19,983 nt of DNA, from positions 1-19,983 of the forward strand of contig JAVCBY010000109.1 in assembly GCA_037917625.1 (NCBI GenBank), in the 5' to 3' direction. Position 1 is the first letter of the stretch, and each line of letters starts with the position of its first letter. The notes under the pieces were generated by a model. It made no database searches. It was not told the DNA's origin and worked only from the letters and a program-made list of their open reading frames with translations. A program made the translations under genes and the position numbers. Of the stretch, positions 2,128-19,983 are shown piece by piece. The stretch comes from Thermoproteota archaeon. GTDB lineage: Archaea; Korarchaeota; Korarchaeia; Korarchaeales; Korarchaeaceae.

Positions 2128-2225
2128 CTAGATGCCCCAGTGAGTCTCGCATAAAATCGCTTCAGGTCTCATCTTGAAGGGTTAAGTGGATCCTAGCTGA
2201 GGACCACTCAGATGTGTTGTAAAAC

Positions 2226-4031: not shown

Positions 4032-5130
4032 TTATGAACCTCCTGAGCCTCTCGGATAGGAAGGAGCAATCCTCCTCAGTTATGCAGTAGGGTGGGAGCA
4101 GCCTCACCATATCCCCTCCAGCCTTCAGAGCTAGCACCCCTGAGGCCTGCAGGGACCTGATGACTCTGTTAGGCTCCTTCACCTTAATGCCTAGCATCAA
4201 TCCCTCCCCCTTGAGCTCAGCGTACTCACTTATCATAGAGGCTAGAGACTTACCCATCTTCCTCGCAGCTTCAGGGACATTTTCCTCGAGGAAGAGCTCT
4301 ATAGAGGCCTTTAGGGCAGCGCAAGCTAAGGGGTTGCCACCATGAGTGCTTCCGTGAAATCCAGGTTTTAAGCCCTCAATTACCCAGTCCCTAGCAGCTA
4401 CCAAGCTGATCGGGAATCCAGAGGCTATGCTCTTCCCAGCTATCAATATGTCAGGCTCAACGCCCCTGCTCTGATGGGCCCAAGTAACACCAGTCCTACC
4501 GAAACCGCATTGCACCTCATCGAATATCAACACAGCTCCCGCTTCATCGCAAGCTCTCCTCAACTCGATTAAGAAGTCGCGTCTAGAGGGCTCTATACCC
4601 CCCTCACCTTGGACAGGCTCCAATATCACTGCAGCTATCTCATCATCGATTAGTTCCGCTGAGGAGATATCGTTGAACTCCCCGAACTCAGCTTTGAGTA
4701 AGGGCAGCCCCTCCCTATACTCCTCATTCCAAGTGACGGAGAGGGCTCCTAAGGTCCTGCCATGAAATCCTCTCTTGAAGGAGAGAAGACCCCTCCTCCC
4801 AGTGGTTTTGAAAGCTAACTTAAGGGCTAATTCGACTGCTTCAGCCCCGCTGTTCTGAAAGTAGACGTTATTGAGCTTATTGGGGAGTATCTTACTCAGG
4901 GAGGAGAGGCACTCCTCCATAGCATCTGTTGAGAAAGTAGTGGACGCCACCATAATCCTATCCAATTGCTCCTTAATGGCATCAACGACCTTCCTAGGCC
5001 TGTGCCCGAGGAAAGCGGCTCCATGACCAGTATGAGCATCTAAGTACTTCCTACCCTCGGAGTCCCATACGTACTGACCCTCTCCCTTGACGAGCTTCAA
5101 GCCCCTGTGAGCTTGGAACCTCATGAACAT
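4015..5130 (-). CDS. lysJ: [LysW]-aminoadipate/glutamate semialdehyde transaminase (class III PLP); alternative start at 5124
   Basis: NSGAEA, FHGRT, EPVQGEGG, DEVQCGFGRTG, AGKSIASG and HGSTHGGNP motifs; cluster context. Confidence 0.92.
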   Translation of the reverse strand: MFMRFQAHRGLKLVKGEGQYVWDSEGRKYLDAHTGHGAAFLGHRPRKVVDAIKEQLDRIMVASTTFSTDAMEECLSSLSKILPNKLNNVYFQNSGAEAVELALKLAFKTTGRRGLLSFKRGFHGRTLGALSVTWNEEYREGLPLLKAEFGEFNDISSAELIDDEIAAVILEPVQGEGGIEPSRRDFLIELRRACDEAGAVLIFDEVQCGFGRTGVTWAHQSRGVEPDILIAGKSIASGFPISLVAARDWVIEGLKPGFHGSTHGGNPLACAALKASIELFLEENVPEAARKMGKSLASMISEYAELKGEGLMLGIKVKEPNRVIRSLQASGVLALKAGGDMVRLLPPYCITEEDCSFLSERLRRFISEQSI

Positions 5131-5960
5131 TCGGACACCGCGTACCTAACTAGCTCCTCAGCTATGTCAACTCCAGTCGCCCTCGCTGCGTTCTTGAACT
5201 CAGTCACTGCATTAGCCTCTAGGACAATCGGACCCCTCTCGCTATCCTCGACTATATCTATGCCTAAGAAACCTCCGCCCAGAGCCTCGCATGTCCTCAA
5301 GACGAGATCCTCAAGATCATCAGTAGCTCTCACAGGCTCAACTCTAGCTCCTCTAGCTGTATTCGTTATCCAGTGATTCGATATCCTATATATTGCTGTT
5401 AAAAATCCTCTATCAGTCCCATAAGCTCTTATATCGCGATCAGGCTTCCTAATGTACTCTTGAATGTAGTGTATTCTATAGTAGGGGGAGCCTATCGCCT
5501 CCCTATGCTCAATTATACTCCTGAGCTCCTCCTCATCCCTAGCCAATGAGACTAGCCTCCCCCAGCTCCCGTTGACGGGTTTTACGACTACTGGGAAGCC
5601 TATCTCCTTAGCCGCTCTGAGCGCTCCCTCTGGGGAGAAGGCAACAGCAGTCTTAGGGGTGGGTACGCCCGAGCTCATCAACTTGAGGGAAGTTAGGAGC
5701 TTATCACCGCACACCCTTATGACTTCAGGGGAATTAACACATTTCACCCCATAATTCGATAAGATTTCAGAGAAAGCCACCGAATTCGTGTGACTCATCG
5801 TCCTGATGAGAGCTACATCGGTTTCTAAGGCTCCAGCGTCCAATCGGTAGTGATTCGATGGTAGATGTAGCAGGAGCCTCTCAGCTCCGAGCCTCTCTAT
5901 GGCCCTCAATATCTGGGACTCCTCCTCCCTGAGCCTCTCGTAAACTAGAGCTATCCTCAT
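5121..5960 (-). CDS. lysX: LysX/ArgX-family ATP-grasp amino acid--LysW ligase
   Basis: KPVNGSWGRLV, QEYI...RDIR, WITNTARG and EANAVTEFKN motifs. The ATG at 5960 overlaps the lysW TGA (ATGA). Confidence 0.93.
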   Translation of the reverse strand: MRIALVYERLREEESQILRAIERLGAERLLLHLPSNHYRLDAGALETDVALIRTMSHTNSVAFSEILSNYGVKCVNSPEVIRVCGDKLLTSLKLMSSGVPTPKTAVAFSPEGALRAAKEIGFPVVVKPVNGSWGRLVSLARDEEELRSIIEHREAIGSPYYRIHYIQEYIRKPDRDIRAYGTDRGFLTAIYRISNHWITNTARGARVEPVRATDDLEDLVLRTCEALGGGFLGIDIVEDSERGPIVLEANAVTEFKNAARATGVDIAEELVRYAVSECS

Positions 5961-6127
5961 TCTCCCCAATCCTCGAGCACTCCCCCTGCTTCTCGGAGAG
6001 AAAGGGTTCCGTTGTCATCGAAGACCTCTAGAAGGGCCCCGCAGGAGTTACAATCTATCAACTCTCCCGGGATCGCGTCATCAGGCACCTCGAGAGCCGA
6101 ACCACATATGGGACATCTCGCCTCCAT
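5957..6127 (-). CDS. lysW: Amino-group carrier protein LysW
   Basis: Zn ribbon CPICG...CNSCG, acidic composition and the C-terminal EDWGE signature; ATG at 6127. Confidence 0.96.
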   Translation of the reverse strand: MEARCPICGSALEVPDDAIPGELIDCNSCGALLEVFDDNGTLSLREAGGVLEDWGE

Positions 6128-6129
6128 AT

Positions 6130-6202
6130 TCGCACCCAATGGTGCGAATGCTGGAAAATATAAGCTTTACTATCGCACTTGCAAGTGCGAATATCGGAAA
6201 AT
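6130..6202 (-). promoter_or_regulatory. lysW promoter with two TCGCAC-N6-GTGCGA palindromes flanking the TATA box
   Basis: Sites at 6130-6147 and 6173-6190, each followed on the plus strand by AT-N3-GGAAAAT. TATA-like aaagcttatattt on the minus strand at about 6168-6156. Confidence 0.75.
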
Positions 6203-6215
6203 GCTGTTAAATTCA

Positions 6216-6989
6216 TTACCTAACTTCGATCGATGTGCCCTCCCCCTTCAACGCTCTCGTCACGGGTTCGTCCCTCAGGCCATTAGCTATCACGATACGC
6301 GTCAATCCAGCTACCCTAACTGCCATCATCAGCTTCCTCAACATACCCCCTCCTATCCCCTCGATAGACCCTATCTCATCGGTCCAGAGGATCCTCCTGA
6401 CCTCGCCATTCAAGATGACACCATCTACATCGGACAGGATCACTAAACCCTCAGGACGCATTGCCTCAGCTATGCTCACTGCTGCTTGATCCCCATCTAC
6501 GTTCAGGATCTCCCCTCCCTTTCCCCTGGAGATGGGGGAGATGACCACGCTGTAACCCAGTTTAATGAGGCCCTCAATGAGCTCCCTCCTCACTTCAACT
6601 ATCCTGCCCGTATAACCACCGGGGATCGCGAACCTCCTTCCGCCTTCCTGGACGATTATCCTCTCCTTCCTCTCAGCTATCATAGTTGGGCCATCCAATC
6701 CTGAGATGCCGACTGCCTTGACGCCGAGGTTCAGGAGCTCGTTCACTATCAACTTATTTATCTTCCCAGCCATCACCATGACGTATACCTCTATCTCATT
6801 CTCATCAGTGTACCTGCTCCTAAGACCGGAAGGGGATGTCACGAACTTCGGCTCTATGCCCATCCTCCTCGATACCTCGCTAACTTCATCTCCCCCGCCG
6901 TGAACGAGTATGAATTCGTATTTGGTTAAGTCCCTGCATATCTCCCTCAAGTTTCGGAGGGCCCTCCCTCCTACCTTGACGACAAGCAT
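6216..6989 (-). CDS. lysZ: [LysW]-aminoadipate/glutamate kinase
   Basis: VVKVGG, VHGGG, SRYTD, LNVDGDQAA, LSDVDG and GGGMLRKL motifs. Confidence 0.93.
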   Translation of the reverse strand: MLVVKVGGRALRNLREICRDLTKYEFILVHGGGDEVSEVSRRMGIEPKFVTSPSGLRSRYTDENEIEVYVMVMAGKINKLIVNELLNLGVKAVGISGLDGPTMIAERKERIIVQEGGRRFAIPGGYTGRIVEVRRELIEGLIKLGYSVVISPISRGKGGEILNVDGDQAAVSIAEAMRPEGLVILSDVDGVILNGEVRRILWTDEIGSIEGIGGGMLRKLMMAVRVAGLTRIVIANGLRDEPVTRALKGEGTSIEVR

Positions 6990-6998
6990 GCTAACACC

Positions 6999-8015
6999 TC
7001 ATGGCCTCAGGGGAGGGATGAGGAGGGCCTCAGTCTCTCTAAATCCCAGCATGAGGTTCATGCACTGGACAGCTTGCCCTGCTGCCCCCTTCCCTAAGTT
7101 ATCTATAGCCGCGAAGCCCGTGACTCTCCCGGATTTCTCATCGCTAGAGAACCCTAGGTCCGCGAAATTGCTACCTATAACGTTTTTGACATCCGGGAAA
7201 ACTCCTCTGGACATTATCCTTATGAAGGGCTCATTGGAGTATAGCTTAGCGAACTCCCTCCATAAAGCCCCCTCATCGGCATCAATTATGGCATGGACGC
7301 TCGCGAAAGAACCCCTCACTGCTCCAACGGAGTGAGGAATTATGCTGACCTTTATAGATGGGTTGAACCTCTTAAGTTCCTGCTCAACTTCTGCTTGATG
7401 TCTGTGCCCTGAAGGGGAATAAGGCCTTATTGTTTGACTCCTCTCAGGGTGATGAGATCCCTTAGAAGGCTTTGAGCCGGCCTCACTGCTCCCAACTTTC
7501 AGATCAGCTATGAGGAGATTTGCGCCGAGGCTAGTGAGGGGGGCTGAGGCCAGCAGAGTGGATGTAGCATTACAACCCGGTACAGCCACTAAGGAGGAGC
7601 GCTTTATCTCATCCCTATTGAACTCAGGGATCCCGTAAACGGATCTATCCAGAAGATCTGGGAGGGGATGCTTCCACCCGTACCACCTCTCGTATAGCTC
7701 GGGATACTTCAGCCTGAAATCAGGGCTCAGATCAATGACTTTGATCCCCACTTCCAGTAGTTTTGGCGTAATATCCTTGGAATTACCTGGAGGTAGGGAG
7801 AGGAAAGCGAGGTCATAGTCTCCCTTCATCGCCTCGCTCGTGGATGAGAACTTCGAGTTGAGTAGCCCCTTGAGATGGGGGTGAGCTAAGTGAATGGGCT
7901 TGCCCGCATACTCCCTTGAGGTTAAAAAAGATAACTCTATATCCCGGTGATTGATTAATATCCTCAAAAGCTCGCCCCCCGTGTATCCCGATGCTCCGAA
8001 TATCGATACCTTCAA
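6999..8015 (-). CDS. lysY: [LysW]-aminoadipate/glutamate phosphate reductase (ArgC family)
   Basis: GASGYTGGEL, DLSPDFRL, PGCNAT, GSSEAG, HHPER, HRHQAE and IDNLGKGAAGQA motifs; TTG start with a GAGGTG Shine-Dalgarno. Confidence 0.93.
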   Translation of the reverse strand: MKVSIFGASGYTGGELLRILINHRDIELSFLTSREYAGKPIHLAHPHLKGLLNSKFSSTSEAMKGDYDLAFLSLPPGNSKDITPKLLEVGIKVIDLSPDFRLKYPELYERWYGWKHPLPDLLDRSVYGIPEFNRDEIKRSSLVAVPGCNATSTLLASAPLTSLGANLLIADLKVGSSEAGSKPSKGSHHPERSQTIRPYSPSGHRHQAEVEQELKRFNPSIKVSIIPHSVGAVRGSFASVHAIIDADEGALWREFAKLYSNEPFIRIMSRGVFPDVKNVIGSNFADLGFSSDEKSGRVTGFAAIDNLGKGAAGQAVQCMNLMLGFRETEALLIPPLRP

Positions 8016-8470
8016 TGCGAATCACCTCTCTTCTCACGCGACTATGATTATATTTTAAGCATATTGGTTGCATTAATCGTACTATAATAGACGATATTAA
8101 TACCTAACGGCCCGCAATAGATAAGCTCTCACGACCCCTCAACGATGGAGAAAGTATCATTTAACCTCTGGCTGAGCTCACTCAGAAAAGCTCCTCCACT
8201 GAACTTGAAGAGAGCCTCTGAGCTTCAATCAGCTCTCTCGAATAAACTAAACTCTCCGCCCGAGGGCTTATATCAGTGATCAGCTACTTCACATCGATAA
8301 GCCCCTCATGATCGATATCTCGAGGCCACCGCTAACTCACGCTTCATGTATGGAGCTCAAATTGAGCGTCTCAAAACTTCAGATAGCATCGCTTAAGGTG
8401 AAATTAAATGATGACCTCAACTCTGATGATCTAAAGGGGACTGCGACTCTGAAAGATATATCTTAAAAAT

Positions 8471-9109
8471 TCACATTATTCCAGCTCTCTTAAGTGCCTT
8501 CTCTATCTCTACTATCCTATCTCGTATCTCCTTGAGATTCTCCTCAATGTATTCCCTGAGATCTCCTCTAAGAAGCCTTATCTCCTCCCTTGTCTTCTCA
8601 GATTCTTCCCTTATCGCTTTCAGAATCGCCCTCCCTAACTTCAAGTTCTTCTCCCCTAGCTCAACCGCTCTCTCGCTCAGCTTCAAGTTCTTCTCCCCTA
8701 ACTCCACAGCTCTCTCGCTCAACTCCACAGCTCTCTCGCTCAACTCCACAGCTCTCTCGCTCAACTCCACATTCCTATAGAGGAGCCTTCCAGCTGCATC
8801 CAGCCTCTCGAAGAGTTCCTCCGTCCATTCTCCTCTCCTTATCTCGAAGAAACTGAATTCCCCTGTCGCCTCCTGCCAGCTGACCTCGAGGCTCTCGACG
8901 AATATGGGGAACTTCTGTATCTTCACCAATTCGATGAACTGTTTGAGCTTCCCCTCATCCCCCTCCGCAACTATCTTGACATCGTAAGGCTTTAAGTTCT
9001 CAACGTAACCAGTGAGGCCCAACTTCCTAGCGATCCTCTCCACTTCATCCCTATAGCCAACTCTCTGAACTTCTCCCTTCGCTATGATCTCTACTCTCTT
9101 CATGACCAC
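8471..9109 (-). CDS. Acylphosphatase-like domain fused to a heptad-repeat coiled coil
   Basis: GEVQRVGYR and GYVEN match acylphosphatase GxVQGVGFR/GxVxN. The C-terminal half contains ELSERAV and ELGEKNL heptads. Confidence 0.85.
   Translation of the reverse strand: MVMKRVEIIAKGEVQRVGYRDEVERIARKLGLTGYVENLKPYDVKIVAEGDEGKLKQFIELVKIQKFPIFVESLEVSWQEATGEFSFFEIRRGEWTEELFERLDAAGRLLYRNVELSERAVELSERAVELSERAVELGEKNLKLSERAVELGEKNLKLGRAILKAIREESEKTREEIRLLRGDLREYIEENLKEIRDRIVEIEKALKRAGIM
8639..8771. repeat. In-frame tandem repeat with 21-bp units
   Basis: aactccacagctctctcgctc occurs 3 times exactly (8700-8762) plus a partial copy. There is also a 42-bp duplication at 8639-8680/8681-8722. Confidence 0.95.
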
Positions 9110-9274
9110 TTCTCCTATAGCCCCTAAAATTTAAAATTTAAGATTTAAAATTTTAAGAGTGAGGATCTAACCTCAATTTATCCTGTGAGCTCAAGCCCAC
9201 GAGGTTGGGCTCTCAATGAGGCTCACTCAAGTGATAGATTAAATATAATGAGCCAATAGGTATGAGGATGCCCT

Positions 9275-10432
9275 GTGAGCTCTAGGAACGTATCAGTGCT
9301 CTCAATAACTTCCTTCATGATAGACGTGGCCTTCAGCTCGTGGTGGATGATCCTCCCCCTCTACTTAGAGAGGTTGGGGGCTAGCGTATCAGAAGTGGGG
9401 ATGAGCTTCTCACTGATAGATATAGCTTGGGCCCTCTCCCAGCTACCCGGAGGCCTCCTCTCAGACAGATTCGGGAGGAAGATAATTATATTGTTATCGA
9501 CATCCACATTCATACCTTTCTTCGCATCTATGCTCTTCCTCAAGGACTGGCTCACAGTAGCTTTAGCAGTAGCTATATCCTCATTTTTCGCCGGCCTTCA
9601 GAATCCATCCTTCAGCTCGATGATAGCGGAATCCTCAGAGAAGCTCGGGGTGGCTAGGGCATTCGGGTTCTACAACTTCCTACTCAATTTAGGATGGGCC
9701 GTCGGTCCCCTCCTCGGATCCTTCATAATACCATCGTATGGTTTCGATCCCCTCTTCATACTGGGGGTAGTCACGAGCCTCTCCTGCCTCGTAGCTAGAG
9801 CTACTCTACTGAGAGAACCCCCGAAACTAGAGGGAAGTAGCTTCGGAGTGACTTTCATACCCCTCCTCATCTCCCTCTCAATATTCAACTTAGCTAATGG
9901 GCTGATCTCCCCCCTAATACCTATTTACGCTGAGAAATCCATGGGCTTCTCCATAGAGGAGATAGAATACATGTTCTTCATAGCTCAACTCCTCACCTCA
10001 ATCTCGAGCATCGCTGCGGGCTCCCTCGTGATGAAGATAGGGGGATTGAGAGGCTTGACATTGTCTTTCGCTCTCTCAGGGGTCTTTTCCTTTCTATGGG
10101 TCTTCTCGAGGACTTACGCAGCTTTCATATTCATCTCGCTCTACTACATGGCTCTCTTCTCCTTAGCTGAGGTCTCCTTCGGTACTTCGATCAGTGAGCT
10201 CACAGCTAGGGGTAGGAGGGCCACTGCCTTCGGGACAGCCACTGTGATCACTAGCCTATCTCACTCAGTTGGTTCTTACTTAGGCGGGATCCTCTGGGAG
10301 ATATCTAAGCCAGAAGCACCCTTCTTCCTAGCATCATCTATAATGCTGCTCTCTTCCTTGATCCTGAGAGCTGTTAGGCCTAATGCCACTCCTCCACTTC
10401 GTTATACCACTTCTCCTTCGTCCCTACCTTAG
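9275..10432 (+). CDS. MFS transporter
   Basis: Motif A GLLSDRFGRK; about 12 hydrophobic segments; 385 aa. Confidence 0.9.
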   Translation: MSSRNVSVLSITSFMIDVAFSSWWMILPLYLERLGASVSEVGMSFSLIDIAWALSQLPGGLLSDRFGRKIIILLSTSTFIPFFASMLFLKDWLTVALAVAISSFFAGLQNPSFSSMIAESSEKLGVARAFGFYNFLLNLGWAVGPLLGSFIIPSYGFDPLFILGVVTSLSCLVARATLLREPPKLEGSSFGVTFIPLLISLSIFNLANGLISPLIPIYAEKSMGFSIEEIEYMFFIAQLLTSISSIAAGSLVMKIGGLRGLTLSFALSGVFSFLWVFSRTYAAFIFISLYYMALFSLAEVSFGTSISELTARGRRATAFGTATVITSLSHSVGSYLGGILWEISKPEAPFFLASSIMLLSSLILRAVRPNATPPLRYTTSPSSLP

Positions 10433-11186
10433 CTCTCTTCTCCCACTTCTTAGATTTGGGGGTCTCATTCAGGTATTTGAGGAGTTCATCTATCCTAGAT
10501 CTCACTACAACTTTATGGGGCTCCTCGATATCATATTCATCTAACTTGCTCCTGAGTAACTGGAGGTTCGTCGTCACAGTGTACCAGAATCCCCAGTCAT
10601 CGAAGAGGCCCTGTATCTTAAATGCCTCCAAGTTTATCTTATCGTCATCATCCCAGCCCAGTTCATGAGCTCTGAGTAAAACTATAGAATCCTTGAAGTC
10701 CTTATCATTCATCCTGACTATTTGAAGTTTCTCCAAGAGTAGCTCAGCTAAGGGGAGCGTTAACGGATCCTTCTCGAGCCTCCCCTTGAACTCTATCGTG
10801 TGATTCATAGCCAACCTATCTAAGAAGACCTCAACCATAGGTATCCTCTCGCTATAATAGATCTGCCTGACCCTACCGTAGTACATGAGGAGCCTCTGAT
10901 CTACCTCATACCCTCTCTCAGCTAAGAACTTCGCTATCTTATCTCTCTCTTTAGAATAACCGGCTAGATCTATATCCGTGAAGACCCTAGCTCCAAGTCT
11001 CTTGAGCCTCTTCCATAGATCCTCATACTCCTTACTGTGCATGTAGATGGCCATACCTCCTATCACCCTCACGGTGATGCCTCTCTCCTTGGCCCCCTCA
11101 ACTATAGCTATAGCCTCTTCTATGAACTCCTCGGGAGACGGGTACTCCTCTATAGGTATCTCAGAGGGCAATCTGAACCTCTTCAT
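10380..11186 (-). CDS. Uncharacterised nucleotidyltransferase-fold protein (AbiEii/DUF1814/MenT-like motifs)
   Basis: IGGMAI, TDIDL, VEVF, LEKL and NDKDFKD motifs in canonical order. Confidence 0.7.
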   Translation of the reverse strand: MKRFRLPSEIPIEEYPSPEEFIEEAIAIVEGAKERGITVRVIGGMAIYMHSKEYEDLWKRLKRLGARVFTDIDLAGYSKERDKIAKFLAERGYEVDQRLLMYYGRVRQIYYSERIPMVEVFLDRLAMNHTIEFKGRLEKDPLTLPLAELLLEKLQIVRMNDKDFKDSIVLLRAHELGWDDDDKINLEAFKIQGLFDDWGFWYTVTTNLQLLRSKLDEYDIEEPHKVVVRSRIDELLKYLNETPKSKKWEKRAKVGTKEKWYNEVEEWH

Positions 11187-11190
11187 GATC

Positions 11191-12123
11191 TCACCCGGAT
11201 ACGAATGAATATCCCTTGATCTTCCCTCTCTCTATATCTATTAGGACTCCCTTGAGTATCCCCTCACCGTACTCACTGCCCGGGTTGAAGCAAGCAGTCC
11301 TCCCTACGTTGCAAACGCCTTTGGATTCGTGTATATGGCCGTGGAGCCCCATCATGGGCTGGTACTTCTCTATAGCTTTCCTAACAGCTACGCTGCCCAC
11401 GGGTATCATCTCACTTACTGATGGCGTCAGATCCTTCGAGAGCTTAGGAGCTAGATCTAAGCCTGAATCATAAGGTGGGGCATGGAAGTTGAATATAGCA
11501 TTCTCCATATTCTCCAGCTTCTTGACGAGGTCCTCTATCAGTTCCTCGAGCTTCTCCTCGGGGACCTCCCTGGGTGTGTTCCAGGGAGTCGGGTTAGAGT
11601 AAGGTAGGGTTATCATCTCATGATGCTCATCAACCCAGACCTTCTTCATGCCAGCGTTCACCACGAAATCGCTTGAATTCAGGACTTCCTCTATCTCCAT
11701 CGGGTCATCGTTTCCAGCCGCTATGAATATCTTCACGTTCTTCCCCCTCAATCTCTCCTCAGCCAGTCTGATCCAACTATTTAACCTGGCCTTTATGTTC
11801 TCGACGAAGAGCCTATCCTTGAGATCGGGGTTCCTCTCTACCTCCTCTAACTCCTCCTTCGTCACTACTATAGGGTAGTAACCGGCTATAGATATCCTCT
11901 TCTTGACATCATCGAGCTCCTTCTCCTTGAACTTATAGGTACCACCGAAGAAAGTGCTAACGTAAGTGTTATCGGGGTTCCTCACTATCGGTATTAGGAG
12001 CTTACCAGATAAATCACCGAGAAGTATGCCGACGTCAGCTTTGTATATGGGGATCGCGTTTAGGAATTTCCTAAATACATATTCAGAGCCATGGACATCC
12101 GTCACGAAGAGTATCCTGGTCAT
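11191..12123 (-). CDS. Calcineurin-like (Icc-related) metallophosphoesterase
   Basis: DVHG, GDL, GNDD, HAPP and GHIHE motifs. Confidence 0.9.
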   Translation of the reverse strand: MTRILFVTDVHGSEYVFRKFLNAIPIYKADVGILLGDLSGKLLIPIVRNPDNTYVSTFFGGTYKFKEKELDDVKKRISIAGYYPIVVTKEELEEVERNPDLKDRLFVENIKARLNSWIRLAEERLRGKNVKIFIAAGNDDPMEIEEVLNSSDFVVNAGMKKVWVDEHHEMITLPYSNPTPWNTPREVPEEKLEELIEDLVKKLENMENAIFNFHAPPYDSGLDLAPKLSKDLTPSVSEMIPVGSVAVRKAIEKYQPMMGLHGHIHESKGVCNVGRTACFNPGSEYGEGILKGVLIDIERGKIKGYSFVSG

Positions 12124-12179
12124 ATTGTCACCTCTCTACCGCAAATCGGCTCCTTATAAAAAATATAGTGTGGGTAGGA

Positions 12180-13820
12180 TCACTCCGGAGGTAGCTCCTT
12201 CCACGCTAGATCTATATCTATGCCCTTCTTCTTGTTCTTCCACCTCCAATATGCCCACCAGAGCATGCCGCCGGTCCAGACGAACAAGAAGGCTATCACT
12301 CCCTCTAAAGATATCCCCTCGAGCTCAGGCGTCGTGTAGTAGATGTACTCTATTATCGCGACGTTTATCAGATCTATCACTGCAGCTATCGTCACTATGT
12401 GAAGGGGTCCTATCCTCCAGTTCCTGTAGGGCGAGGTCTCCCATATAGATCTGACCTTCTTGACGAATGGGAATATCAGAGCGCCTATTGCGGTGACTCC
12501 CCACAAGGAGATGCCCTCAGTGGCAGGGCAGTCCAGCGAAGATATCGGACCAGCTCCTCCGAAGCAATAAAGAGCTATCCCGAGTTCGCTAGCTATGAAG
12601 AAGAAGGTCAAGTTCTTCACGGGTGATGCCCACTTGGGGTTCACCTCAGAGAACCACTTCGGCCCCATCCTGTCCATACCCCAAGCTACTGCTATCCTGC
12701 TAGCAGCTACGTAACCCAGAGGGATGTACATATAATCGCAGATTATGAAGCTGAGAGCGGCTATTATAGCTAGAGCGTAATGTAGCGGGTTAGATATGTC
12801 TAGGAAGACCCTAGTAATTCCCATTAAGTTGGGTGGGAAGGGCATGTTGTAGCCATCTAAGCCCACGTTGTCCGCTACCGAGAGAGCGTACATGAAGTCC
12901 CTCCCCACGACGCTCGGGAAGAGCATAGCGAATGCGAGGACGAATATAGCTGGAGCAACTACTGAGCTTATCTGAGCTATCATTATGTTCCTCTGGGGTC
13001 TCTTTATCTCACCAGCCATGACGTTCAGATCTAGGCCGTATCTAGCCCACCAGGCGTTCACCACAACTAAGCCGAGGGTCCCAGCGACTAGAGATGCAGT
13101 AGGGGCGAAGACCCTGGGATCAGCATCCATAGCTGCGCTTATCATACCCTCATAATCTAGGGAATTGTACTGAGCTGCCATCGCGTTCCAAGCTGCTACG
13201 AACTCCTCGTGAGAGTGCATGCCCAGTATGACACCTACTATAACGAGGAATACTATAGAGAGTACCATCATCGTCCTCTGATGCCAGAGGTACCATCTCA
13301 AGCCATAGAAAGTGAATAGATAGCCCAGGAAGTTCACTATGGAAGCTATTATGAACTTGCCTAGTGGAGTGGCGCACCACTCAGCAGCTTCAGGCATCTC
13401 CAGCATCCCGAAGAGAGTGGTCAACCCGGGATCGGCGACCCATGGGGCTAATATTATCCCCCAGAGCCACCAAACGAAATATTCAGCGAAGCTGACGGCC
13501 ATCCCTATCGCTGGGTGGAGTATCCTCGTGTTGTAAACGTAGCTTCCTCCACTCCTGGGCATGGAAGCCCCCAGGATCCCCCACACGAGGGCAGCTCCGA
13601 AGACCCCAAAGAAAGTAGCTATCCATATGGAGCTCAGTATATCCCCGGATGGGAAGAGCCATATTCCCCAGCTTAACAACGTCCATATAGCGACAGCTGG
13701 TCCTTGGTTGAGGAAACCGAAGGAGAAGGCATCTATTAGGCTGGCTTCCCTCACTAGACCGCTCGCCCTTCTCGCGAAAACTTCCTTTGGAACAATTCCA
13801 CTCGATCCCTCTCCCGACAT
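12180..13820 (-). CDS. APC-family amino acid permease
   Basis: FARRASGLVR, MPRSGGSYVY, AGEIKRP and SRIAVAWGMDR motifs; about 12 TM segments; ATG at 13820. Confidence 0.9.
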   Translation of the reverse strand: MSGEGSSGIVPKEVFARRASGLVREASLIDAFSFGFLNQGPAVAIWTLLSWGIWLFPSGDILSSIWIATFFGVFGAALVWGILGASMPRSGGSYVYNTRILHPAIGMAVSFAEYFVWWLWGIILAPWVADPGLTTLFGMLEMPEAAEWCATPLGKFIIASIVNFLGYLFTFYGLRWYLWHQRTMMVLSIVFLVIVGVILGMHSHEEFVAAWNAMAAQYNSLDYEGMISAAMDADPRVFAPTASLVAGTLGLVVVNAWWARYGLDLNVMAGEIKRPQRNIMIAQISSVVAPAIFVLAFAMLFPSVVGRDFMYALSVADNVGLDGYNMPFPPNLMGITRVFLDISNPLHYALAIIAALSFIICDYMYIPLGYVAASRIAVAWGMDRMGPKWFSEVNPKWASPVKNLTFFFIASELGIALYCFGGAGPISSLDCPATEGISLWGVTAIGALIFPFVKKVRSIWETSPYRNWRIGPLHIVTIAAVIDLINVAIIEYIYYTTPELEGISLEGVIAFLFVWTGGMLWWAYWRWKNKKKGIDIDLAWKELPPE

Positions 13821-13925
13821 GCACAACCCCCCAAATCGGGGCTCTATTTATGGATCCATGCTAGATTTAAGCATTGCGTTTCGACAAAGGGTGGATAAAA
13901 TAATTAAAAAATTTTAATGATAGAA

Positions 13926-13970
13926 AGGAGCTCTCATGCTCCTCCGGGGAGAGGATTGAAGGTCCCCTCC
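13926..13970 (-). terminator. Twin GC-rich hairpins followed by U-rich tracts after the dehydratase gene
   Basis: The minus strand reads GGAGGGGA-ccttcaa-TCCTCTCC and AGGAGC-atgaga-GCTCCT, then ttttttaattatttt. Confidence 0.45.
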
Positions 13971-13996
13971 TTCCGTATATTTTTTTAAGATAGAAT

Positions 13997-15034
13997 TCAC
14001 CTGAGGAAGAACCCATATCTCAGGGGATCCTCTGGATCTATGAGGAAAGTGTTCTTAGCTATTATATATGCATCTCCGCTTACTTCAGGTATGATAGCTT
14101 CGTAAGGCCCATATCTCACCCTCTCAACTATCCTTCCCTTGAACTTCGTATTTATTATGCTCTCAAATACTAGCTCCTCACCTATGCTGACTTCGTTCCT
14201 CGCTAGTAAAATGGGCAACCTCGCGCTGACACCAGTCCCAGTGGGGCACCTATCAACTTCACCCTCAGCGAAGATCGTGACGTGCCTGCTATGAGATCCC
14301 TCCTCCATAGGTGGGCACACGAATATCGTCCCGTATAGGAAGCTGAGGTCCCTCTCAAACGGATGCTCTATATTCAAGCTCCTCATGACTGCTCTCTTTA
14401 TCCTTATCCCCACATCTATGAGCTCCCTATACCCCTCGGGGATGCACTTCAATCCTAGCTGCTCTGAGTCGACGAAAGCGTAGAAAGCCCCTCCGAATGC
14501 CACATCATACCTTACCCTCCCGATCCCCTCAACTTCTACCTCCCTATCGAGAGCGTAAACGAATGAAGGCACGTTCCTGAATCTCACCCTCCCTATCTTG
14601 CCGTTTTTGACCTCAACGTAAGCCTTGACTAGACCTGAGGGTGTCTCTATCCTAACTTCCGTTAGGGGCTCAGTAGCATCGACGATACCAGTTAGCACAG
14701 CTACTTTAGCTAAAGCTATCACAGCGTGACCGCATCCAGTACTGTAGCCCTCATTGTGCATGAATATCACTCCGAAGTGCGCTTCAGGAGAGGAAGGCTC
14801 TGTTATCACCGCACCGTACATATCAGCGTGACCCCTGGGCTCTAAAATTAGGGCTCTCCTCATGTGATCCAAATTCTCCATGAAGTACCTCCTCTTCTCC
14901 AGCAAGTTGTTTCCTTCAATATAAGGGATCCCCGAGGTTATTATCCTGAGGGGCTCCCCCTCCGTATGCGTCTCTAAAGTCGTTATCTTCAACCAGCTGG
15001 CTGGCGGTTCCCAATCCCTGAGCTCACTCTCCAA
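13997..15034 (-). CDS. Proline racemase family, Cys/Thr type: probable trans-3-hydroxy-L-proline dehydratase
   Basis: HTEGEPLRI, EPRGHADMYG, STGCGH (Cys), DVAFGGAFY and DRCPTGTG (Thr at the second catalytic site). Confidence 0.82.
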   Translation of the reverse strand: MESELRDWEPPASWLKITTLETHTEGEPLRIITSGIPYIEGNNLLEKRRYFMENLDHMRRALILEPRGHADMYGAVITEPSSPEAHFGVIFMHNEGYSTGCGHAVIALAKVAVLTGIVDATEPLTEVRIETPSGLVKAYVEVKNGKIGRVRFRNVPSFVYALDREVEVEGIGRVRYDVAFGGAFYAFVDSEQLGLKCIPEGYRELIDVGIRIKRAVMRSLNIEHPFERDLSFLYGTIFVCPPMEEGSHSRHVTIFAEGEVDRCPTGTGVSARLPILLARNEVSIGEELVFESIINTKFKGRIVERVRYGPYEAIIPEVSGDAYIIAKNTFLIDPEDPLRYGFFLR

Positions 15035-15077
15035 GGTATCAACCCGCTGAAAAGTGAGGTGAATAATAAAAAAGTAT

Positions 15078-16142
15078 TTAGGAGCTAGCTATGCTGCTCT
15101 TCACCCTCTCCCTAACATCCTTCGGTATATATGGCCTCTCAGGAAGCACTCCCTGAGGCCTGTAAATCAATATGAGCGCTGTTATAGCCCCAAGGAGGAT
15201 CTGATAGAGCCAGATCACATCAAAGGGTAGGAGGCCGACGAACTCGTGCTTGTAGTACGTTATGAACCTGTCTAAGGCGACGAAAACTGTAGTACCTACG
15301 AGCGCACCCTTATTATTACCTAGACCTCCCAGTAATATCATGAGCCAGGGGAGGAAGGTCCAGTTGAACCTGAAGAACTGTCCGGGCATCACGCTCCCGT
15401 TGAAGAAAGCCCATAGGACGCCAGTTATCCCGCAGAACGCGGATCCTATCACTATAGCTATAGCCCTATATTTCACTAAGCTCTTACCTAAAGCGGCAGC
15501 TGCGACTTCATTATCCCTTATTGCCTTCATAGTCCTACCTATGGGCGTCCTCCCTAAGTACTCAGCGTAAGCGTATATGATCAGGGCTATTATGAGCATA
15601 GCAGCTGTCATAGCGACTATAGTATTTTTCCCAGCCCATCCGAAGACTGATGGAACTTGCACCCCGTATTCTCCACCTATCAATGGTCTATAAGCCCTAG
15701 CAATTACGTTCGCTATCTCACCGAATGCCAGGAGCGTTAAACCCAAATAATCGATCCTCAGCCTTATCGCCGGGCCGACCTGAACTAGTCCGAGGACTGC
15801 GCCGATTATAGCACCTATTATCAAGCATATTATGAAGAGGGCCATCGATAGAAGGGGATTAGAGCTAAGGATAGGGTTTATAAGGGCTATCACACCCGAG
15901 CTCTCGTATATCGGATCTAGCTCCGTCTTTATCCCGAGGATCCACATGGCCAGTCTCGTGGAGAGATTCCCCATTACATATGCGGTCCCAGCTATGGGGA
16001 ATACTAATCCGAACTGTGGGATCCCAGCATACCCTCTCTGTATGTTCAGACTCACACTCGCTATCAAGTATACGGAATATACTGCTATGAAGCTCGTAAC
16101 GAATAATAAGATTTGCTCAAATATCTGCTCCATCTCAAACAC
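15078..16142 (-). CDS. livM: Liv-type ABC transporter permease (LivM-like)
   Basis: GYAGIPQFG, RLRIDYLGLTLLAFGE, AIRDNEVAAAALG, LGGLGN and RPQG motifs. Confidence 0.88.
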   Translation of the reverse strand: MFEMEQIFEQILLFVTSFIAVYSVYLIASVSLNIQRGYAGIPQFGLVFPIAGTAYVMGNLSTRLAMWILGIKTELDPIYESSGVIALINPILSSNPLLSMALFIICLIIGAIIGAVLGLVQVGPAIRLRIDYLGLTLLAFGEIANVIARAYRPLIGGEYGVQVPSVFGWAGKNTIVAMTAAMLIIALIIYAYAEYLGRTPIGRTMKAIRDNEVAAAALGKSLVKYRAIAIVIGSAFCGITGVLWAFFNGSVMPGQFFRFNWTFLPWLMILLGGLGNNKGALVGTTVFVALDRFITYYKHEFVGLLPFDVIWLYQILLGAITALILIYRPQGVLPERPYIPKDVRERVKSSIASS

Positions 16143-17049
16143 CCCTCCTCCTCATTATCAAGGGGGCTATGCCCGTGGGCAATACTGCGAGCGTTATTAC
16201 CAATATGGCTAGGGGTATTATCATCATGTAATTTATTATATCGGGACCTACTACTGAGGCTAGAGAAGAGAGAAGCAATATCTTTGCGAATCCAAGCAGA
16301 AAACTTCCAATAGGTGCTCCTATTAGGTAATCAAGCCCACCTACTGTACTGGCGCAGAACATCTCAGCTAAATAGTAAGTACCTGTGAAAACATTGCACA
16401 TCTGGTAGAAGGGGAGCAATGCCCCAGCTACCCCAGCAGTAGCTCCTGCTATGAACCAAGAGATCAGGAGCATCCTGGAGACATTTATTCCCAAGGTCTG
16501 CGCTAAGGATGGGTTCTCCATACATGCTCTTAATGCTACTCCTAAGTTCGTCCTGTAGAGTAAGAGCTGAAGCGCTATCATCGTGACGAGAAATGCCGCA
16601 AGTGAGATGAAAACTATTCCCCGAAGCCCGAATATATTAAAATCCATTGGAGCAAAATAGATATTCCTTGATAATATCTTGAACTCAAATTGGAGTATAT
16701 CAGCTAGTATGTTGAGGACTCCGTACATCAGTATATCGAAGGAGAGAGTGGCTATCATAAGGAGGAATATTGATGCTTTTCTTTTCCTCAAAGGCTCTAA
16801 TATGTAAAAGAGCAATACAGCCACTAGGCCACCGAGGATAAAGCCAAGAGGAATTCCAAAGTACGGGTGGGAGCCGAAAACCCAGGCTATCGTTGATGCA
16901 TATATGCCAGTTGTTACAAAGGATGCGTGAGCGAAGTTAGGGACTCTTGTAGTTCTGTAAAGGAGAGTAATCCCTATGGCAGTTAAAGAAAGTATGGAGG
17001 ACCAAACTAAGGCTTGTATAAGGGTACCAACGGAGAAGATAACTTGCAT
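16135..17049 (-). CDS. livH: Liv-type ABC transporter permease (LivH-like)
   Basis: AIGITLLY...NFAH, RTNLGVALRA...A..LGIN and VGGL motifs. Confidence 0.88.
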   Translation of the reverse strand: MQVIFSVGTLIQALVWSSILSLTAIGITLLYRTTRVPNFAHASFVTTGIYASTIAWVFGSHPYFGIPLGFILGGLVAVLLFYILEPLRKRKASIFLLMIATLSFDILMYGVLNILADILQFEFKILSRNIYFAPMDFNIFGLRGIVFISLAAFLVTMIALQLLLYRTNLGVALRACMENPSLAQTLGINVSRMLLISWFIAGATAGVAGALLPFYQMCNVFTGTYYLAEMFCASTVGGLDYLIGAPIGSFLLGFAKILLLSSLASVVGPDIINYMMIIPLAILVITLAVLPTGIAPLIMRRRGV

Positions 17050-17766
17050 TCAATCACCCATCCCCAAGTAGAGCTCCATTATCTCCCTCTCACCCATGAG
17101 CTCCGAGGGCAGGCCCTTGAAGACCACCTGGCCACTTACAATCACATAAACCTTATCAGCAACCTCAAGAGCCTTCTGAACGTTTTGCTCAACCAAAACT
17201 ATACTCAACCCCTTCTGATCCCTTATCTCATTTATCTTCTTCGTTATGAGGTTCACGTAAAGGGGCATGAGACCTGCTGTAGGTTCATCTAGTAGCAAGA
17301 GCTTCGGGTTCCTCACTAGTCCTATGCTTATAGCCAACATCTGCCTCTCTCCCCCGCTGAGAGTTCCTGCTCTCTGCTTCTTCCTCTCCTTGAGTATTGG
17401 GAAGAGCTCGTATACATAATCCAGCATATCGGAACTTTTATCCTTGGAGAGGGCCATCGAGATCCTCAAATTTTCATCCACTGAGAGCTCCGAAAATATG
17501 TTTATCATCTGTAGTAAGTATGCGACTCCCATCCTCGCTATGCTGTGAGGAGGGAGCTTCGAGATCTCCTCCTCATCGAGCTTGATGCTTCCCGAGTAGA
17601 TATCAGCGATCCCGAAAATGCTATTCAGTAGAGTCGTTTTCCCTGCGCCATTAGGGCCGACTACAGCGACTATCTCCTTCTTCCCACAATCTATCGAGAC
17701 ATCATATAACACGTGCAACTTCCCATAACCCGAGTTCAGATTCTCGACCCTCAGCATGTCAACCAC
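17050..17766 (-). CDS. livF: Liv-type ABC ATPase (LivF-like)
   Basis: GPNGAGKTT, AGTLSGGERQMLAI, LLLDEP and VEQN motifs. Confidence 0.92.
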   Translation of the reverse strand: MVDMLRVENLNSGYGKLHVLYDVSIDCGKKEIVAVVGPNGAGKTTLLNSIFGIADIYSGSIKLDEEEISKLPPHSIARMGVAYLLQMINIFSELSVDENLRISMALSKDKSSDMLDYVYELFPILKERKKQRAGTLSGGERQMLAISIGLVRNPKLLLLDEPTAGLMPLYVNLITKKINEIRDQKGLSIVLVEQNVQKALEVADKVYVIVSGQVVFKGLPSELMGEREIMELYLGMGD

Positions 17767-18511
17767 CTATATAAACCATCCTGACTTGCTCATTCCTAGC
17801 TATCTCATCGGGCGTCCCGCTCGCTATTATCCTCCCCTGATGCATAGCGTATACGAAATCAACGTACTTCAGAGCTATGTCAAGCCTGTGCTCTATTATT
17901 AGGAAAGTCAGTTTCATCTCATCCCTCAATTTAACTATATGCGAGAATATATTATGAGCGAGCTTAGGATTCACGCCCGCGATGGGTTCATCGAGAACGA
18001 CCATTTTAGCCCCTGACATGAGAGCTCTACCTATCTCAATTAGCTTCAGAGCTCCGGCATCAAGAGAAGCTGGCTCCTTATCCCAGTAACTCTCGAGACC
18101 TAAGATCTTCATTATGTGGACTGCTCTATCCACAGCCTCCCTCTCATAATCCTTCCATGATGATTTGATCAAGTGCTTCGTGAAGGACTCGCCGGGATGA
18201 TTCCTCGCTGCGAGCAGGAGGTTCTCGAGCACCGATAATTGGAGGAAGGGAGAGGGTATCTGGAAGGTCCTCACGAAACCTCTCTCATACATCTTGTGCA
18301 TCGGTAGACCTGTGACATCTTCGTTCATGAAGTAAACCTTGCCGCCATCAGGCTTGTAGTAGCCGCTCACTGTGTTGACGAAAGTCGTCTTTCCGCATCC
18401 ATTTGGACCTATTAGCAGCGTTATTGAACCTTCTTCAACCCCTATGTTGACTTCATTAACAGCTATCAGGCCCCCGAACCTCTTGACGAGCTTATCAGTT
18501 TTCAATATCAT
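17759..18511 (-). CDS. livG: Liv-type ABC ATPase (LivG-like)
   Basis: FGGLIAV, GPNGCGKTT, RTFQ, LDEPIAGVNP and IEH motifs. Confidence 0.92.
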   Translation of the reverse strand: MILKTDKLVKRFGGLIAVNEVNIGVEEGSITLLIGPNGCGKTTFVNTVSGYYKPDGGKVYFMNEDVTGLPMHKMYERGFVRTFQIPSPFLQLSVLENLLLAARNHPGESFTKHLIKSSWKDYEREAVDRAVHIMKILGLESYWDKEPASLDAGALKLIEIGRALMSGAKMVVLDEPIAGVNPKLAHNIFSHIVKLRDEMKLTFLIIEHRLDIALKYVDFVYAMHQGRIIASGTPDEIARNEQVRMVYIGG

Positions 18512-18627
18512 GTATACCCCCTTAAAGCCTCGAGCTATCGACGACTTTATCGCTTTTTTAAAAACCTATCGCAAGAGTGTAGAGCGGGCTACGATCATTT
18601 TAGAACTAAAAAAGGTTAGGGTGAAGT

Positions 18628-19911
18628 TTAAGAGCCTAGAGGATGATACCAAGTTATGCTGTCCGCGATAGGATCGTACATGCCTATAAGTACCATCTTT
18701 CCATCTATTACAGCCCATATCTCCTCGCTCTGTGACTTCCTATCGTTCTTCTCATTGAGCTCAAGGTTCCCGCTCACTCCCCAGTACATCTTGGCCACGT
18801 AGGGTATAGCAGCCTTTATGGCATCAGCGTCGTACTTCCCAGCTAGTAGCGTTGATAGAGCGAGCACCCAAGCAGTATCATATGCCTGAAGCGCCCATAT
18901 ATCGGGCTCCATCCCTATCTCCTTCTTCACAGTTTCTACTATCCTCCTCTTCAGAGGCGTGTCCGGCGCTGTGAACTGCACGCACACGACTCTCACCTTT
19001 GAGGCTAGATCAGCAGCGTTCTTGAGCACGACATCAGCAGGGTATATGGTATCAGGAGCTATCCACTGTAGGTTGAGCAGGAAGCTCTTCCTAGCGTTAG
19101 CTTGTGTCAGAAGCAGGGTGAGGTCATCCTGCCATCCATTGTCGAATACAGCCACCTTCTCTCCTCTATCAACGTAAGGCTTAGCTGCAGCCTCCATCTG
19201 ATCCAATAATGCTGAGAAGTCCTTCATATCAGGCGGATAAACTGCATTAAGCAATACAGTGACGTCATACTCAGGAGCCAGTTTGACGAAGGCATCCCTA
19301 ACTGCTAAGTTGTAAGTATCGTCTATCGTTATGGTGACAACATACTTTATCCCTAAGGTCTTGAGGACGTTGAGCAGAGCTTTGGAATCTGGTATTGAGG
19401 ACTCAGCTGTAAACCTGAAGAGGTAACCACCTGGAGGAGCTACCCTCTCCCTGGGAGCTGTGGACGCTGAGCTCACAACTACTACCTTCTGAGTGTTAGC
19501 GAACTCAGCTAAGCTCCTAGTCTGCTTGCTGGTCAGTGATCCGAATATCACCTTGATCCCCCTAGCAGCGAGGGATTGGGCCCTCTGCAGCGTTAAGCTC
19601 GGGTTGGTCTCATCGTCCTCGAAGTAGAACTTGAATCTAACGTTGAGCCCTATGGATTTCACGAACTCATTTATGTCTTTCTCAGCTATCTTAGCTATGA
19701 CCTCCGACTGAAGGCCTGAGGAGGCCCAAGTGCCGCTCCTAGATACGATCACCCCGAATGGTATCTCGCTCGGAAGCGCTGCCGCTGGAGCGGTAACAGT
19801 AACTGTGGTTGCAGCACCTGGCCTGGGGATGAAGTAGCCGATAGCTACACCGATTAATAGCACTACTATTAGAAGTAGGGCTAAAACCGGGGTCGATATG
19901 CCTCTCCTCAT
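18628..19911 (-). CDS. Liv-type ABC substrate-binding protein, N-terminally membrane-anchored
   Basis: N-terminal hydrophobic helix and Thr/Ala linker; EDDETNP, SSASTAP, YLFRF, AYD and WGVSGNLELNEKNDR motifs; first gene of the operon. Confidence 0.88.
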   Translation of the reverse strand: MRRGISTPVLALLLIVVLLIGVAIGYFIPRPGAATTVTVTAPAAALPSEIPFGVIVSRSGTWASSGLQSEVIAKIAEKDINEFVKSIGLNVRFKFYFEDDETNPSLTLQRAQSLAARGIKVIFGSLTSKQTRSLAEFANTQKVVVVSSASTAPRERVAPPGGYLFRFTAESSIPDSKALLNVLKTLGIKYVVTITIDDTYNLAVRDAFVKLAPEYDVTVLLNAVYPPDMKDFSALLDQMEAAAKPYVDRGEKVAVFDNGWQDDLTLLLTQANARKSFLLNLQWIAPDTIYPADVVLKNAADLASKVRVVCVQFTAPDTPLKRRIVETVKKEIGMEPDIWALQAYDTAWVLALSTLLAGKYDADAIKAAIPYVAKMYWGVSGNLELNEKNDRKSQSEEIWAVIDGKMVLIGMYDPIADSITWYHPLGS

Positions 19912-19983
19912 GAAGACCCCCGATATCTGGGGGGGCTTACTTATAAATGTAACTATCCAGTTGCTGAAGGCACCTCATACGTT

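Follow-up and report, generated by a model that had tools for sequence, protein, structure and literature searches.

A permease, metallophosphoesterase and nucleotidyltransferase cassette conserved in amine-related gene clusters of archaea and bacteria

The window analyzed here, a 19,983-nucleotide stretch of a Korarchaeal genome (assembly GCA_037917625.1, contig JAVCBY010000109.1, positions 1 to 19,983), carries a cassette of three genes encoding an APC-superfamily permease, a metallophosphoesterase (MPE) of the GNDD type and a nucleotidyltransferase (NT) with a predicted Pol-beta fold. Comparative genomic analysis shows that this cassette is an accessory, conserved and apparently horizontally spread module, most probably not a toxin-antitoxin pair, and that it lies mostly within catabolic clusters for omega-amines, polyamines and arginine-derived amines. 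The cassette may handle amines by a new mechanism, in which the NT/MPE pair would either tag an imported amine with a removable nucleoside monophosphate (NMP) or switch the permease, a proposal to which we give somewhat less than an even chance. The parts are of known kinds; their widely conserved association is undescribed in the literature found. The cassette is laid out as follows:

12180-13826, minus strand: APC-superfamily permease, 548 aa from a TTG at 13826, with an ATG at 13820
12124-12179, minus strand: permease/MPE spacer, 56 bp
11191-12123, minus strand: MPE, GNDD type, 310 aa
11187-11190, minus strand: MPE/NT spacer, 4 bp, reading TGA-GATC-ATG from the MPE stop to the NT start
10380-11186, minus strand: Pol-beta-fold NT, 268 aa

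The open reading frames (ORFs) on the minus strand bear out the initial annotation, which had described three co-oriented genes with gaps of 56 and 4 bp; the permease end that it placed at 13820 coincides with an ATG, the 548-aa ORF being read from the TTG at 13826. In the close relatives L001, L002 and L003 the MPE and NT ORF calls overlap, suggesting translational coupling of the two genes. The 56-bp spacer contains a T/A-rich stretch, TATATTTTTTATAAGG, about 30 nt ahead of the MPE ATG, which was picked out by eye and is a candidate for either an oligo-T terminator or an internal promoter of archaeal type.

Conservation and distribution of the cassette

With one genome scanned for each species, at least 559 proved to encode an NT relative, and the best 80 loci were taken for comparison. 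Gene arrangements over these 80 loci were counted by tblastn with the window proteins, and neighbouring genes were counted with a simple ORF caller followed by clustering; linkage counts were taken from tblastn because the simple ORF caller mis-calls some high-GC loci. An MPE gene was present somewhere in the locus in 76 of the 80 and stood directly ahead of NT in 63, counts that overstate the independence of the observations because many of the loci come from related Chloroflexota. The 63 loci comprise 48 in which permease, MPE and NT are directly adjacent in this order, nine in which the permease lies elsewhere in the locus, four in which a contig end cuts off the upstream DNA and two with no permease match. 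A further 13 loci contain the MPE gene in another arrangement, with or without the permease, and two are cut upstream of NT. A failure of the three genes to co-occur in other genomes had been named beforehand as an outcome that would refute the proposed association; instead they co-occur in many genomes, with MPE and NT together in 76 of 80 loci.

The 80 loci cover 14 phylum labels. Those from archaea include Korarchaeia, Nitrososphaerota, Bathyarchaeota, Thermoplasmatota, Geothermarchaeota, Culexarchaeota, Thorarchaeota and Baldrarchaeota, and those from bacteria are Chloroflexota, Spirochaetota, Thermodesulfobacteriota, Actinomycetota and Acidobacteriota. A quick tree, whose root is not placed, groups Dehalococcoidia with Spirochaetota and Thermodesulfobacteriota (support 100) beside Bathyarchaeia and apart from the main Anaerolineae clade (support 99), a topology that is compatible with transfer between domains.

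The association also holds within the phylum of the window, to which 43 of the genomes examined belong. NT was found in 26 of these genomes, and an MPE of the same type was present in 25 of the 26 NT-positive genomes and in none of the 17 NT-negative ones; the single discordant genome, with NT and no MPE, has a completeness of 63%, and its only NT sequences are fragments at contig ends. Among 35 full-length NT matches in the phylum, 28 are immediately preceded by a co-oriented MPE gene no more than 100 bp away, and for another six the MPE gene lies up to 1.8 kb away on the contig that carries NT. The cassette is present in 15 of 25 high-quality genomes of the phylum and in 10 of 20 other genomes of the window's genus. 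In keeping with a Korarchaeal origin of the window, its MPE shares 93% identity with proteins that bear the name Candidatus Korarchaeum cryptofilum.

Diverged versions of the cassette were also recovered. The genome that supplied the window holds a second, diverged cassette on another contig (L084, G000 contig C24, 3694-12141), which comprises a HemL-like class-III aminotransferase, an APC permease, an MPE and an NT. This type-2 cassette keeps the order permease, MPE, NT in all five Korarchaeal loci examined (L084 and L087-L090), and its proteins share 37-41% (NT), about 40% (MPE) and 24-27% (permease) identity with those of the window cassette. L084 also contains a 300-nt direct repeat, 99% identical with a spacing of 616 nt, which duplicates the 5' part of the NT gene; the single copy in the complete relative genome G014 points to a recent duplication or an assembly artefact. 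In addition, the cultured haloarchaeon Halobellus limi (L085, NZ_CP031312.1, 383126-389795) carries a version whose NT is 31% identical. The genes there run IclR regulator, Fe-alcohol dehydrogenase (Fe-ADH), aldehyde dehydrogenase, MPE, NT and a convergent APC permease, so that the MPE-NT order is kept and the permease lies on the opposite strand. The replicon, of 398 kb and non-mobilizable, gave the sole plasmid match (one of 72,556 plasmid records). As a cultured carrier, Halobellus limi could serve as an experimental system, which makes the function of the cassette testable.

The nucleotidyltransferase

The NT was modeled with AlphaFold2 at high confidence (pLDDT 93.5, pTM 0.92), and structure searches with this model establish a Pol-beta nucleotidyltransferase (NTase) fold for the predicted protein. 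Foldseek against the PDB gave weak matches only, headed by MenT1 (8an5_B, E 7.2e-4) and including LnuA, a fungal NTase-like protein and ANT(2'')-Ia. A structure search independent of Foldseek returned MenT1 (Z 11.7 over 169 residues, 3.5 Å), ANT(2'')-Ia (11.0), 5uvd (10.9) and LnuA (10.4), four matches that were treated as tied, followed by TglT/MenT3 (9.7), JHP933 (8.9), MenT4 (8.3) and TM1012 (8.1), with DNA polymerase beta and terminal uridylyltransferases at Z 6-8. The model places the NT in a structural neighbourhood that tRNA-modifying toxins and antibiotic O-nucleotidyltransferases have in common. The initial annotation had predicted such a fold for the 268-aa protein and had named its absence from a structure search as a refuting outcome; the fold was found, with MenT toxins among the best matches. 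The model confidence, the NTase fold matches and the linkage in 76 of 80 loci together make the observed trio of genes more than chance.

The N-terminal NTase lobe contains GG (43-44), T70-D71-x-D73 and E119, and the C-terminal helical lobe contains K153, K162-D163, K165-D166, DWGF (197-200) and a basic C-terminal helix. Across 24 homologues with 49-72% identity, G43, G44, T70, D71, D73, K153, K162, D163, K165 and D166 are invariant, as are the further basic residues R40, R63, R107, R136, K244 and R251. The strings IGGMA (42-46), DID (71-73), EKL (152-154) and KDFKD (162-166), reported previously for this protein, are all present. The MenT family is described by four motifs in PMC7450476, and the C-terminal Lys/Asp of MenT is given as K137/D152 in PMC11375011. 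The claim that the NT carries all four AbiEii/MenT motifs holds for motifs I and II, whose G43, G44, D71 and D73 are invariant, and leaves K153, D163 and D166 as candidates only for motifs III and IV.

Membership of AbiEii/DUF1814, which had also been proposed, was not supported: the Pfam AbiEii model (PF08843) matched none of 25 NT family members, PADLOC returned nothing for the NT, and MenT1 is tied with ANT(2'')-Ia and LnuA as a structural match. The only Pfam match of the NT at E<=0.01 was NTP_transf_5 (PF14907) with 21.2 bits, under the cut-off of 31.2, and this model was matched below threshold (16.7-26.2 bits) in six of 25 NT relatives. PDB sequence and profile searches with the NT gave chance-level matches only, and NCBIfam provided no name for the permease, the MPE or the NT. 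In the ESM Atlas, the nearest named families, each found on some members of distant clusters, are NTP_transf_5 (the closest), DUF2204 and, more remotely, Aminoglyc_resit; PF10706 occurs in one distant cluster only, on 20% of its members. All 887 NT homologues in a 90% collection are labelled 'hypothetical' and lack a Pfam domain, and the family comprises at least 2396 clusters at 50% identity (E<=1e-3), or 634 at E<=1e-30. Judged from its sequence relatives, the NT belongs to a large unnamed family without a Pfam model.

A search for fused or longer NT forms turned up none, which is weak evidence. Two NT relatives with N-terminal extensions were observed. P0301 has an IclR/MarR-type helix-turn-helix ahead of the NT, with DxD reading D-I-N and GG reading G-A, and P0303 has about 170 unassigned N-terminal residues and a proline-rich linker; these extensions may be real fusions or gene-calling artefacts.

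The metallophosphoesterase

The MPE matches Pfam Metallophos with 33.5 bits, over the cut-off of 21.5, and some family members carry Metallophos_3. Residues D9, H11, G36, D37, G137-N138-D139-D140, H214, G262-H263 and H265 are invariant in 22 homologues. In motif III, GNDD (137-140) replaces the usual GNH[DE], a change of His to Asp, and an inserted subdomain lies between motifs II and III. The AlphaFold2 model (pLDDT 93.7) matches 2yvt (aq_1956, Z 24.4), 1uf3 (TT1561, 23.9), MPPED2 (20.4), Mre11 (19.7), Rv0805 (18.0) and GpdQ (16.9), and a PDB sequence search returned nothing useful. The MPE can be assigned to the regular calcineurin-type binuclear metallophosphoesterases of the aq_1956/TT1561 type, with its predicted metal ligands intact. 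Both enzymes are predicted to be catalytically competent, as the motifs are invariant and the set of GG, DxD and third carboxylate is intact. A complex prediction for MPE and NT (score 0.01, mark 0.32) weighs neither for nor against their interaction.

The permease subfamily and its siblings

The permease matches Pfam AA_permease_2 with 58.6 bits, over the cut-off of 27, and has no NCBIfam equivalog match and no PDB sequence match. An N-terminal FxRRxSGLVR motif and a C-terminal GID...ELPPE tail are kept in 18 aligned orthologues, and both also occur in paralogues of about 25% identity and in G014, which marks the protein as a member of a distinct APC subfamily. Five of the seven APC genes in the complete genome G014 belong to this subfamily (FxRRxSGLVR, GI[DE]...ELPP), two of them being cassette permeases. 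The other three, the sibling permeases L099, L100 and L101, lack MPE and NT, and each adjoins one hydrolase-like gene: an HDAC/acetylpolyamine-amidohydrolase-like gene, an acetamidase/formamidase-like gene (with a 4-bp overlap) and a GH113-like gene. Such pairings may reflect a general pattern in which a permease is matched with a processing hydrolase, and by analogy would fit a permease accompanied by an enzyme that processes an imported conjugate. The permease termini were also considered as a docking site specific for MPE and NT; this was rejected, since the three sibling permeases without MPE and NT share the motifs.

Metabolic neighbours

At least one amine-metabolism neighbour was found in 59 of the 80 loci. 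Class-III aminotransferases are the most frequent (49 loci), followed by aldehyde dehydrogenases (20), saccharopine-dehydrogenase-like proteins (11), aldehyde:ferredoxin oxidoreductases (AOR; 10), parts of PotABCD-type transporters (9-10, with PotA and PotD in 10 each), the deoxyhypusine-synthase family (7), pyruvoyl arginine decarboxylases (6), MttB-family methyltransferases (4), carbamoyltransferases (OTCase; 3) and members of the arginine-deiminase superfamily (ADI-like; 3). Lrp/AsnC regulators occur in 14 loci. These neighbour counts, too, overstate the number of independent cases, as many of the loci belong to related Chloroflexota. The metabolic, nutrient-linked setting proposed in the initial annotation is supported by these neighbours.

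The Chloroflexota aminotransferase downstream of NT reaches 594.6 bits against the putrescine aminotransferase model, under the cut-off of 612, a neighbouring dehydrogenase passes the subfamily cut-off for methylmalonate-semialdehyde dehydrogenase, and a neighbouring binding protein resembles PotD. By their best PDB matches, other neighbouring aminotransferases resemble taurine:2-oxoglutarate and gamma-aminobutyrate (GABA)-type enzymes, and one is of the glutamate-1-semialdehyde (GSA)-aminomutase type. A phospho-lyase identity for these aminotransferases was considered and dropped, the matches being instead to taurine:2-oxoglutarate, GABA-type, GSA-aminomutase-type and putrescine-aminotransferase-like enzymes.

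A putative membrane protein of about 231 aa is encoded in 19 of the 80 loci, usually directly after NT, and could be a fourth component of the cassette. It had no Pfam, NCBIfam or PADLOC family match. Its members (L004:6130-6807 and 18 other loci) range from about 215 to 257 aa, have a hydrophobic middle by eye, and were found in archaea, Dehalococcoidia, Spirochaetota and Thermodesulfobacteriota.

Other features of the window

Around the cassette, the window encodes the following:

13997-15034, minus strand: proline-racemase-family gene, 170 bp upstream of the permease
9275-10432, plus strand: major facilitator superfamily (MFS) gene, convergent with and downstream of NT, the 3' ends overlapping by 53 bp (10380-10432)
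8471-9109, minus strand: acylphosphatase-domain gene, with the domain at residues 7-90 followed by a repetitive coiled-coil-like tail (ELSERAVELSERAV...)
3018-8015, minus strand: five-gene run matching, in Pfam, an M20 peptidase, a class-III aminotransferase, a RimK/LysX-type ATP-grasp protein, an amino-acid kinase and a semialdehyde dehydrogenase
2212-2888, plus strand: VapB-type antitoxin ORF (85 aa, PF02697) and PIN-domain ORF (140 aa), overlapping by 4 bp

The proline-racemase-family gene fell under the NCBIfam equivalog cut-offs for proline racemase, 4-hydroxyproline epimerase and trans-3-hydroxy-L-proline dehydratase; this neighbour is also present in L001 and G014. Also upstream lies a LIV-type ABC transporter. 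Downstream of the cassette, the MFS gene, which also follows NT in L001, L025 and L026, is succeeded by the acylphosphatase gene, whose DNA contains 21- and 42-nt tandem repeats at 8633-8771, and by a LysX-type lysine/arginine biosynthesis cluster. A LysX_preATP_grasp domain was matched in the ATP-grasp gene of this run, which is presumably a LysW-type lysine/arginine biosynthesis cluster. The pair at 2212-2888 looks like an ordinary VapBC toxin-antitoxin system.

Proposed mechanism and alternative explanations

The best inference for the function of the cassette, held tentatively at a probability of roughly 0.35, is a transient cycle in which NMP is added to and removed from an imported amine conjugate. 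The permease would import an amine-bearing compound, probably conjugated or phospho-linked. At the expense of a nucleoside triphosphate (NTP), the NT would link NMP to this compound, or to an intermediate of the pathway, through a hydroxyl or phosph(on)ate group, and the MPE would afterwards cleave the resulting phosphodiester. The NMP would act as a temporary activating group or handle; alternatively, the MPE would unmask a phosphodiester-linked amine. The freed amine would be handed to class-III aminotransferases and aldehyde-oxidizing enzymes. The initial annotation had put forward a writer and eraser of NMP or a two-step pathway for the pair, and either may apply. The linkage of the three genes, including that in the diverged cassettes, the invariant catalytic motifs and the amine-catabolic neighbours count in favour of the cycle. 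A role at the level of the substrate is favoured because the sibling permeases pair with predicted conjugate-processing enzymes and because the ANT(2'')/LnuA fold acts on amine-rich small molecules.

Several points weigh against this cycle. A net addition and removal of NMP would be energetically costly, and we know of no amine pathway that needs such a cycle. The catabolic neighbours vary by lineage (transaminases, OTCase, ADI-like proteins, MttB, Fe-ADH) and the trio is constant, so the trio could just as well serve transport or regulation in general. In the window, no aminotransferase adjoins the cassette, its neighbours being the proline-racemase-family gene, the MFS gene and the LIV-type ABC transporter. 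Moreover, NT occurs without MPE or permease within about 6 kb in two of the 80 loci (L048 and L076), and at least 27 of these best 80 loci from at least 559 genomes are from Chloroflexota, so that the counts are not independent.

The main rival explanation, which we consider unlikely, is that the NT nucleotidylylates Ser, Thr or Tyr of the permease or of a pathway protein and that the MPE removes the NMP, so that amine uptake would be under a switch like that exerted on nitrogen metabolism by GlnD/GlnE-type cycles. The unchanging make-up of the trio amid variable catabolic neighbours, the tight coupling of MPE and NT (a 4-bp gap or an overlap) and the retention of the permease subfamily's cytoplasmic N- and C-terminal motifs even at about 25% overall identity all speak for such a switch, as does the regulatory nature of most known pairs of NTase and phosphohydrolase (GlnD, GlnE, Rel/SpoT). 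However, the same terminal motifs are found in the three G014 siblings that lack MPE and NT and are paired with ordinary hydrolases, the N-terminal motif in our reading resembles the start of an ordinary APC permease, and the search turned up no fused or membrane-anchored NT, which counts weakly. It is less probable, and on the whole doubtful, that the MPE is the sole pathway enzyme, unmasking a phosphoester-linked amine, and that the NT controls the MPE or is itself controlled; by analogy, a MenT-like NT could be silenced by auto-phosphorylation of T70, with the MPE restoring its activity. The invariant T70 immediately precedes D71-x-D73, the sibling permeases pair with single hydrolases, and a precedent is given in PMC11375011, where MenT1 auto-phosphorylates T39, two residues before D41, and becomes inactive. 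Yet the spacing differs (T-D-x-D in the NT and T-x-D in MenT1), the residue equivalence is putative, and no antitoxin-like inducer is present.

Two further readings tie the pair to nucleotide signals or to RNA. Synthesis by the NT, and breakdown by the MPE, of a small nucleotide messenger reporting amine supply is quite improbable: Rv0805 (Z 18.0) and MPPED2 (Z 20.4), both cyclic-nucleotide phosphodiesterases, do count among the MPE relatives, and the Rel and SpoT synthetase domains are among the weak NT fold matches (Z ~6), but the best of those matches are transferases onto tRNA or antibiotics rather than cyclases or alarmone synthetases, and no receptor or effector gene is kept alongside. 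Slimmer still is the chance that the NT, in the manner of the MenT toxins, extends tRNAs at their 3' ends, with the MPE repairing or resetting RNA termini, which would tie translation to nutrient uptake. Although MenT1, MenT3 and MenT4 are among the best NT folds (Z 11.7, 9.7 and 8.3) and many basic residues of the NT are invariant (R40, R63, R107, R136, K153, K162, K165, K244 and R251), this would leave the obligatory permease link and the amine catabolism unexplained, and an NT identity of 50-60% across domains is unlike that of fast-evolving toxins. It is barely credible that the cassette works in toxin-antitoxin fashion or by abortive infection, the MPE being an antitoxin of a novel type. 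The resemblance of the NT fold to MenT/AbiEii-type toxins is what speaks for it; the synteny with metabolic genes is stable, and the apparent VapBC pair elsewhere in the window bears little likeness to the cassette. PADLOC found no match for the NT or the permease, and for the MPE only a weak PDC-S10 match (E 2.2e-6); NT homologues were found in none of 50,697 phage records and in one plasmid record, the non-mobilizable one described above. The earlier observation that no AbiEi/MenA-type antitoxin adjoins the NT proved correct, its neighbours being the MPE gene, 4 bp upstream, and the convergent MFS gene.

Relation to known systems and significance

Compared with MenT1, MenT3 and MenT4, the NT shares the bi-lobed Pol-beta NTase fold and the GG and DxD motifs, together with a Thr just before the first Asp and conserved Lys and Asp residues of the C-terminal lobe as candidate counterparts of those described for MenT in PMC7450476 and PMC11375011. 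It is 10-14% identical to the MenT toxins, matches no AbiEii model and has no antitoxin gene. Its place is instead in metabolic clusters, next to a permease and a phosphoesterase; its sequence is highly conserved between archaea and bacteria, and no relative was found in the phage records. ANT(2'')-Ia and LnuA are equally good fold matches, with 154 and 135 residues aligned, and their substrates are amine-rich small molecules, which fits the amine context of the cassette; they are 12-14% identical to the NT, for which Pfam shows no match to their sequence families. The NT exceeds them by about 100 residues, having an additional C-terminal helical region and a conserved peptide at the N-terminus, and the cassette lacks a resistance-gene context. 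For the MPE, the best structural matches, aq_1956 (2YVT) and TT1561 (1UF3), share 18% identity, and a literature search on the two found no functional paper; both are structural-genomics proteins that are not known to have an assigned function.

Among systems of known function, GlnD/GlnE resemble the cassette in combining a Pol-beta NTase with a phosphoester-cleaving activity and in being linked to a nitrogen-compound transporter, as in amtB-glnK. Their erasers, however, are HD or second NTase domains and PII is involved, whereas the eraser of the cassette would be a calcineurin-type MPE, with no PII. The logic proposed for the cassette is also that of the transient cytidylyl 'handle' steps of phosphonate biosynthesis by Fom1/FomD and FrbH/FrbI, in which NMP is added to a small phospho- or hydroxy-amine, the compound is modified and NMP is hydrolysed off; unlike the cassette, these enzymes have other folds, are biosynthetic rather than catabolic and have no permease link. 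The putrescine route of E. coli (PuuP, PatA/YgjG, PatD) shares an APC permease, a class-III aminotransferase of the putrescine aminotransferase-like kind and an aldehyde dehydrogenase with the cassette clusters, but contains no phosphoesterase or nucleotidyltransferase. A literature search on the gene combination and on NTP_transf_5/DUF2204, with bioRxiv supplements and subscription journals outside its scope, found no description of the cassette; one mention of PF14907 concerned an unrelated phosphonate cluster.

Collectively, two enzyme families without an assigned function are locked to one permease subfamily, and many carriers of the cassette are uncultured anaerobes living on detrital nitrogen compounds. 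If the NMP handle is real, it would be a nucleotide counterpart of coenzyme A activation for compounds without a carboxylate. With either the handle or the permease switch, a fold of tRNA-poisoning toxins and antibiotic-resistance enzymes would have a housekeeping role in metabolism. Solving the chemistry would give a function to thousands of 'hypothetical' genes, could expose a new step of polyamine or amine turnover or a new form of transporter control, and would show what roles MenT/ANT-like nucleotidyltransferases play outside toxin and resistance settings.

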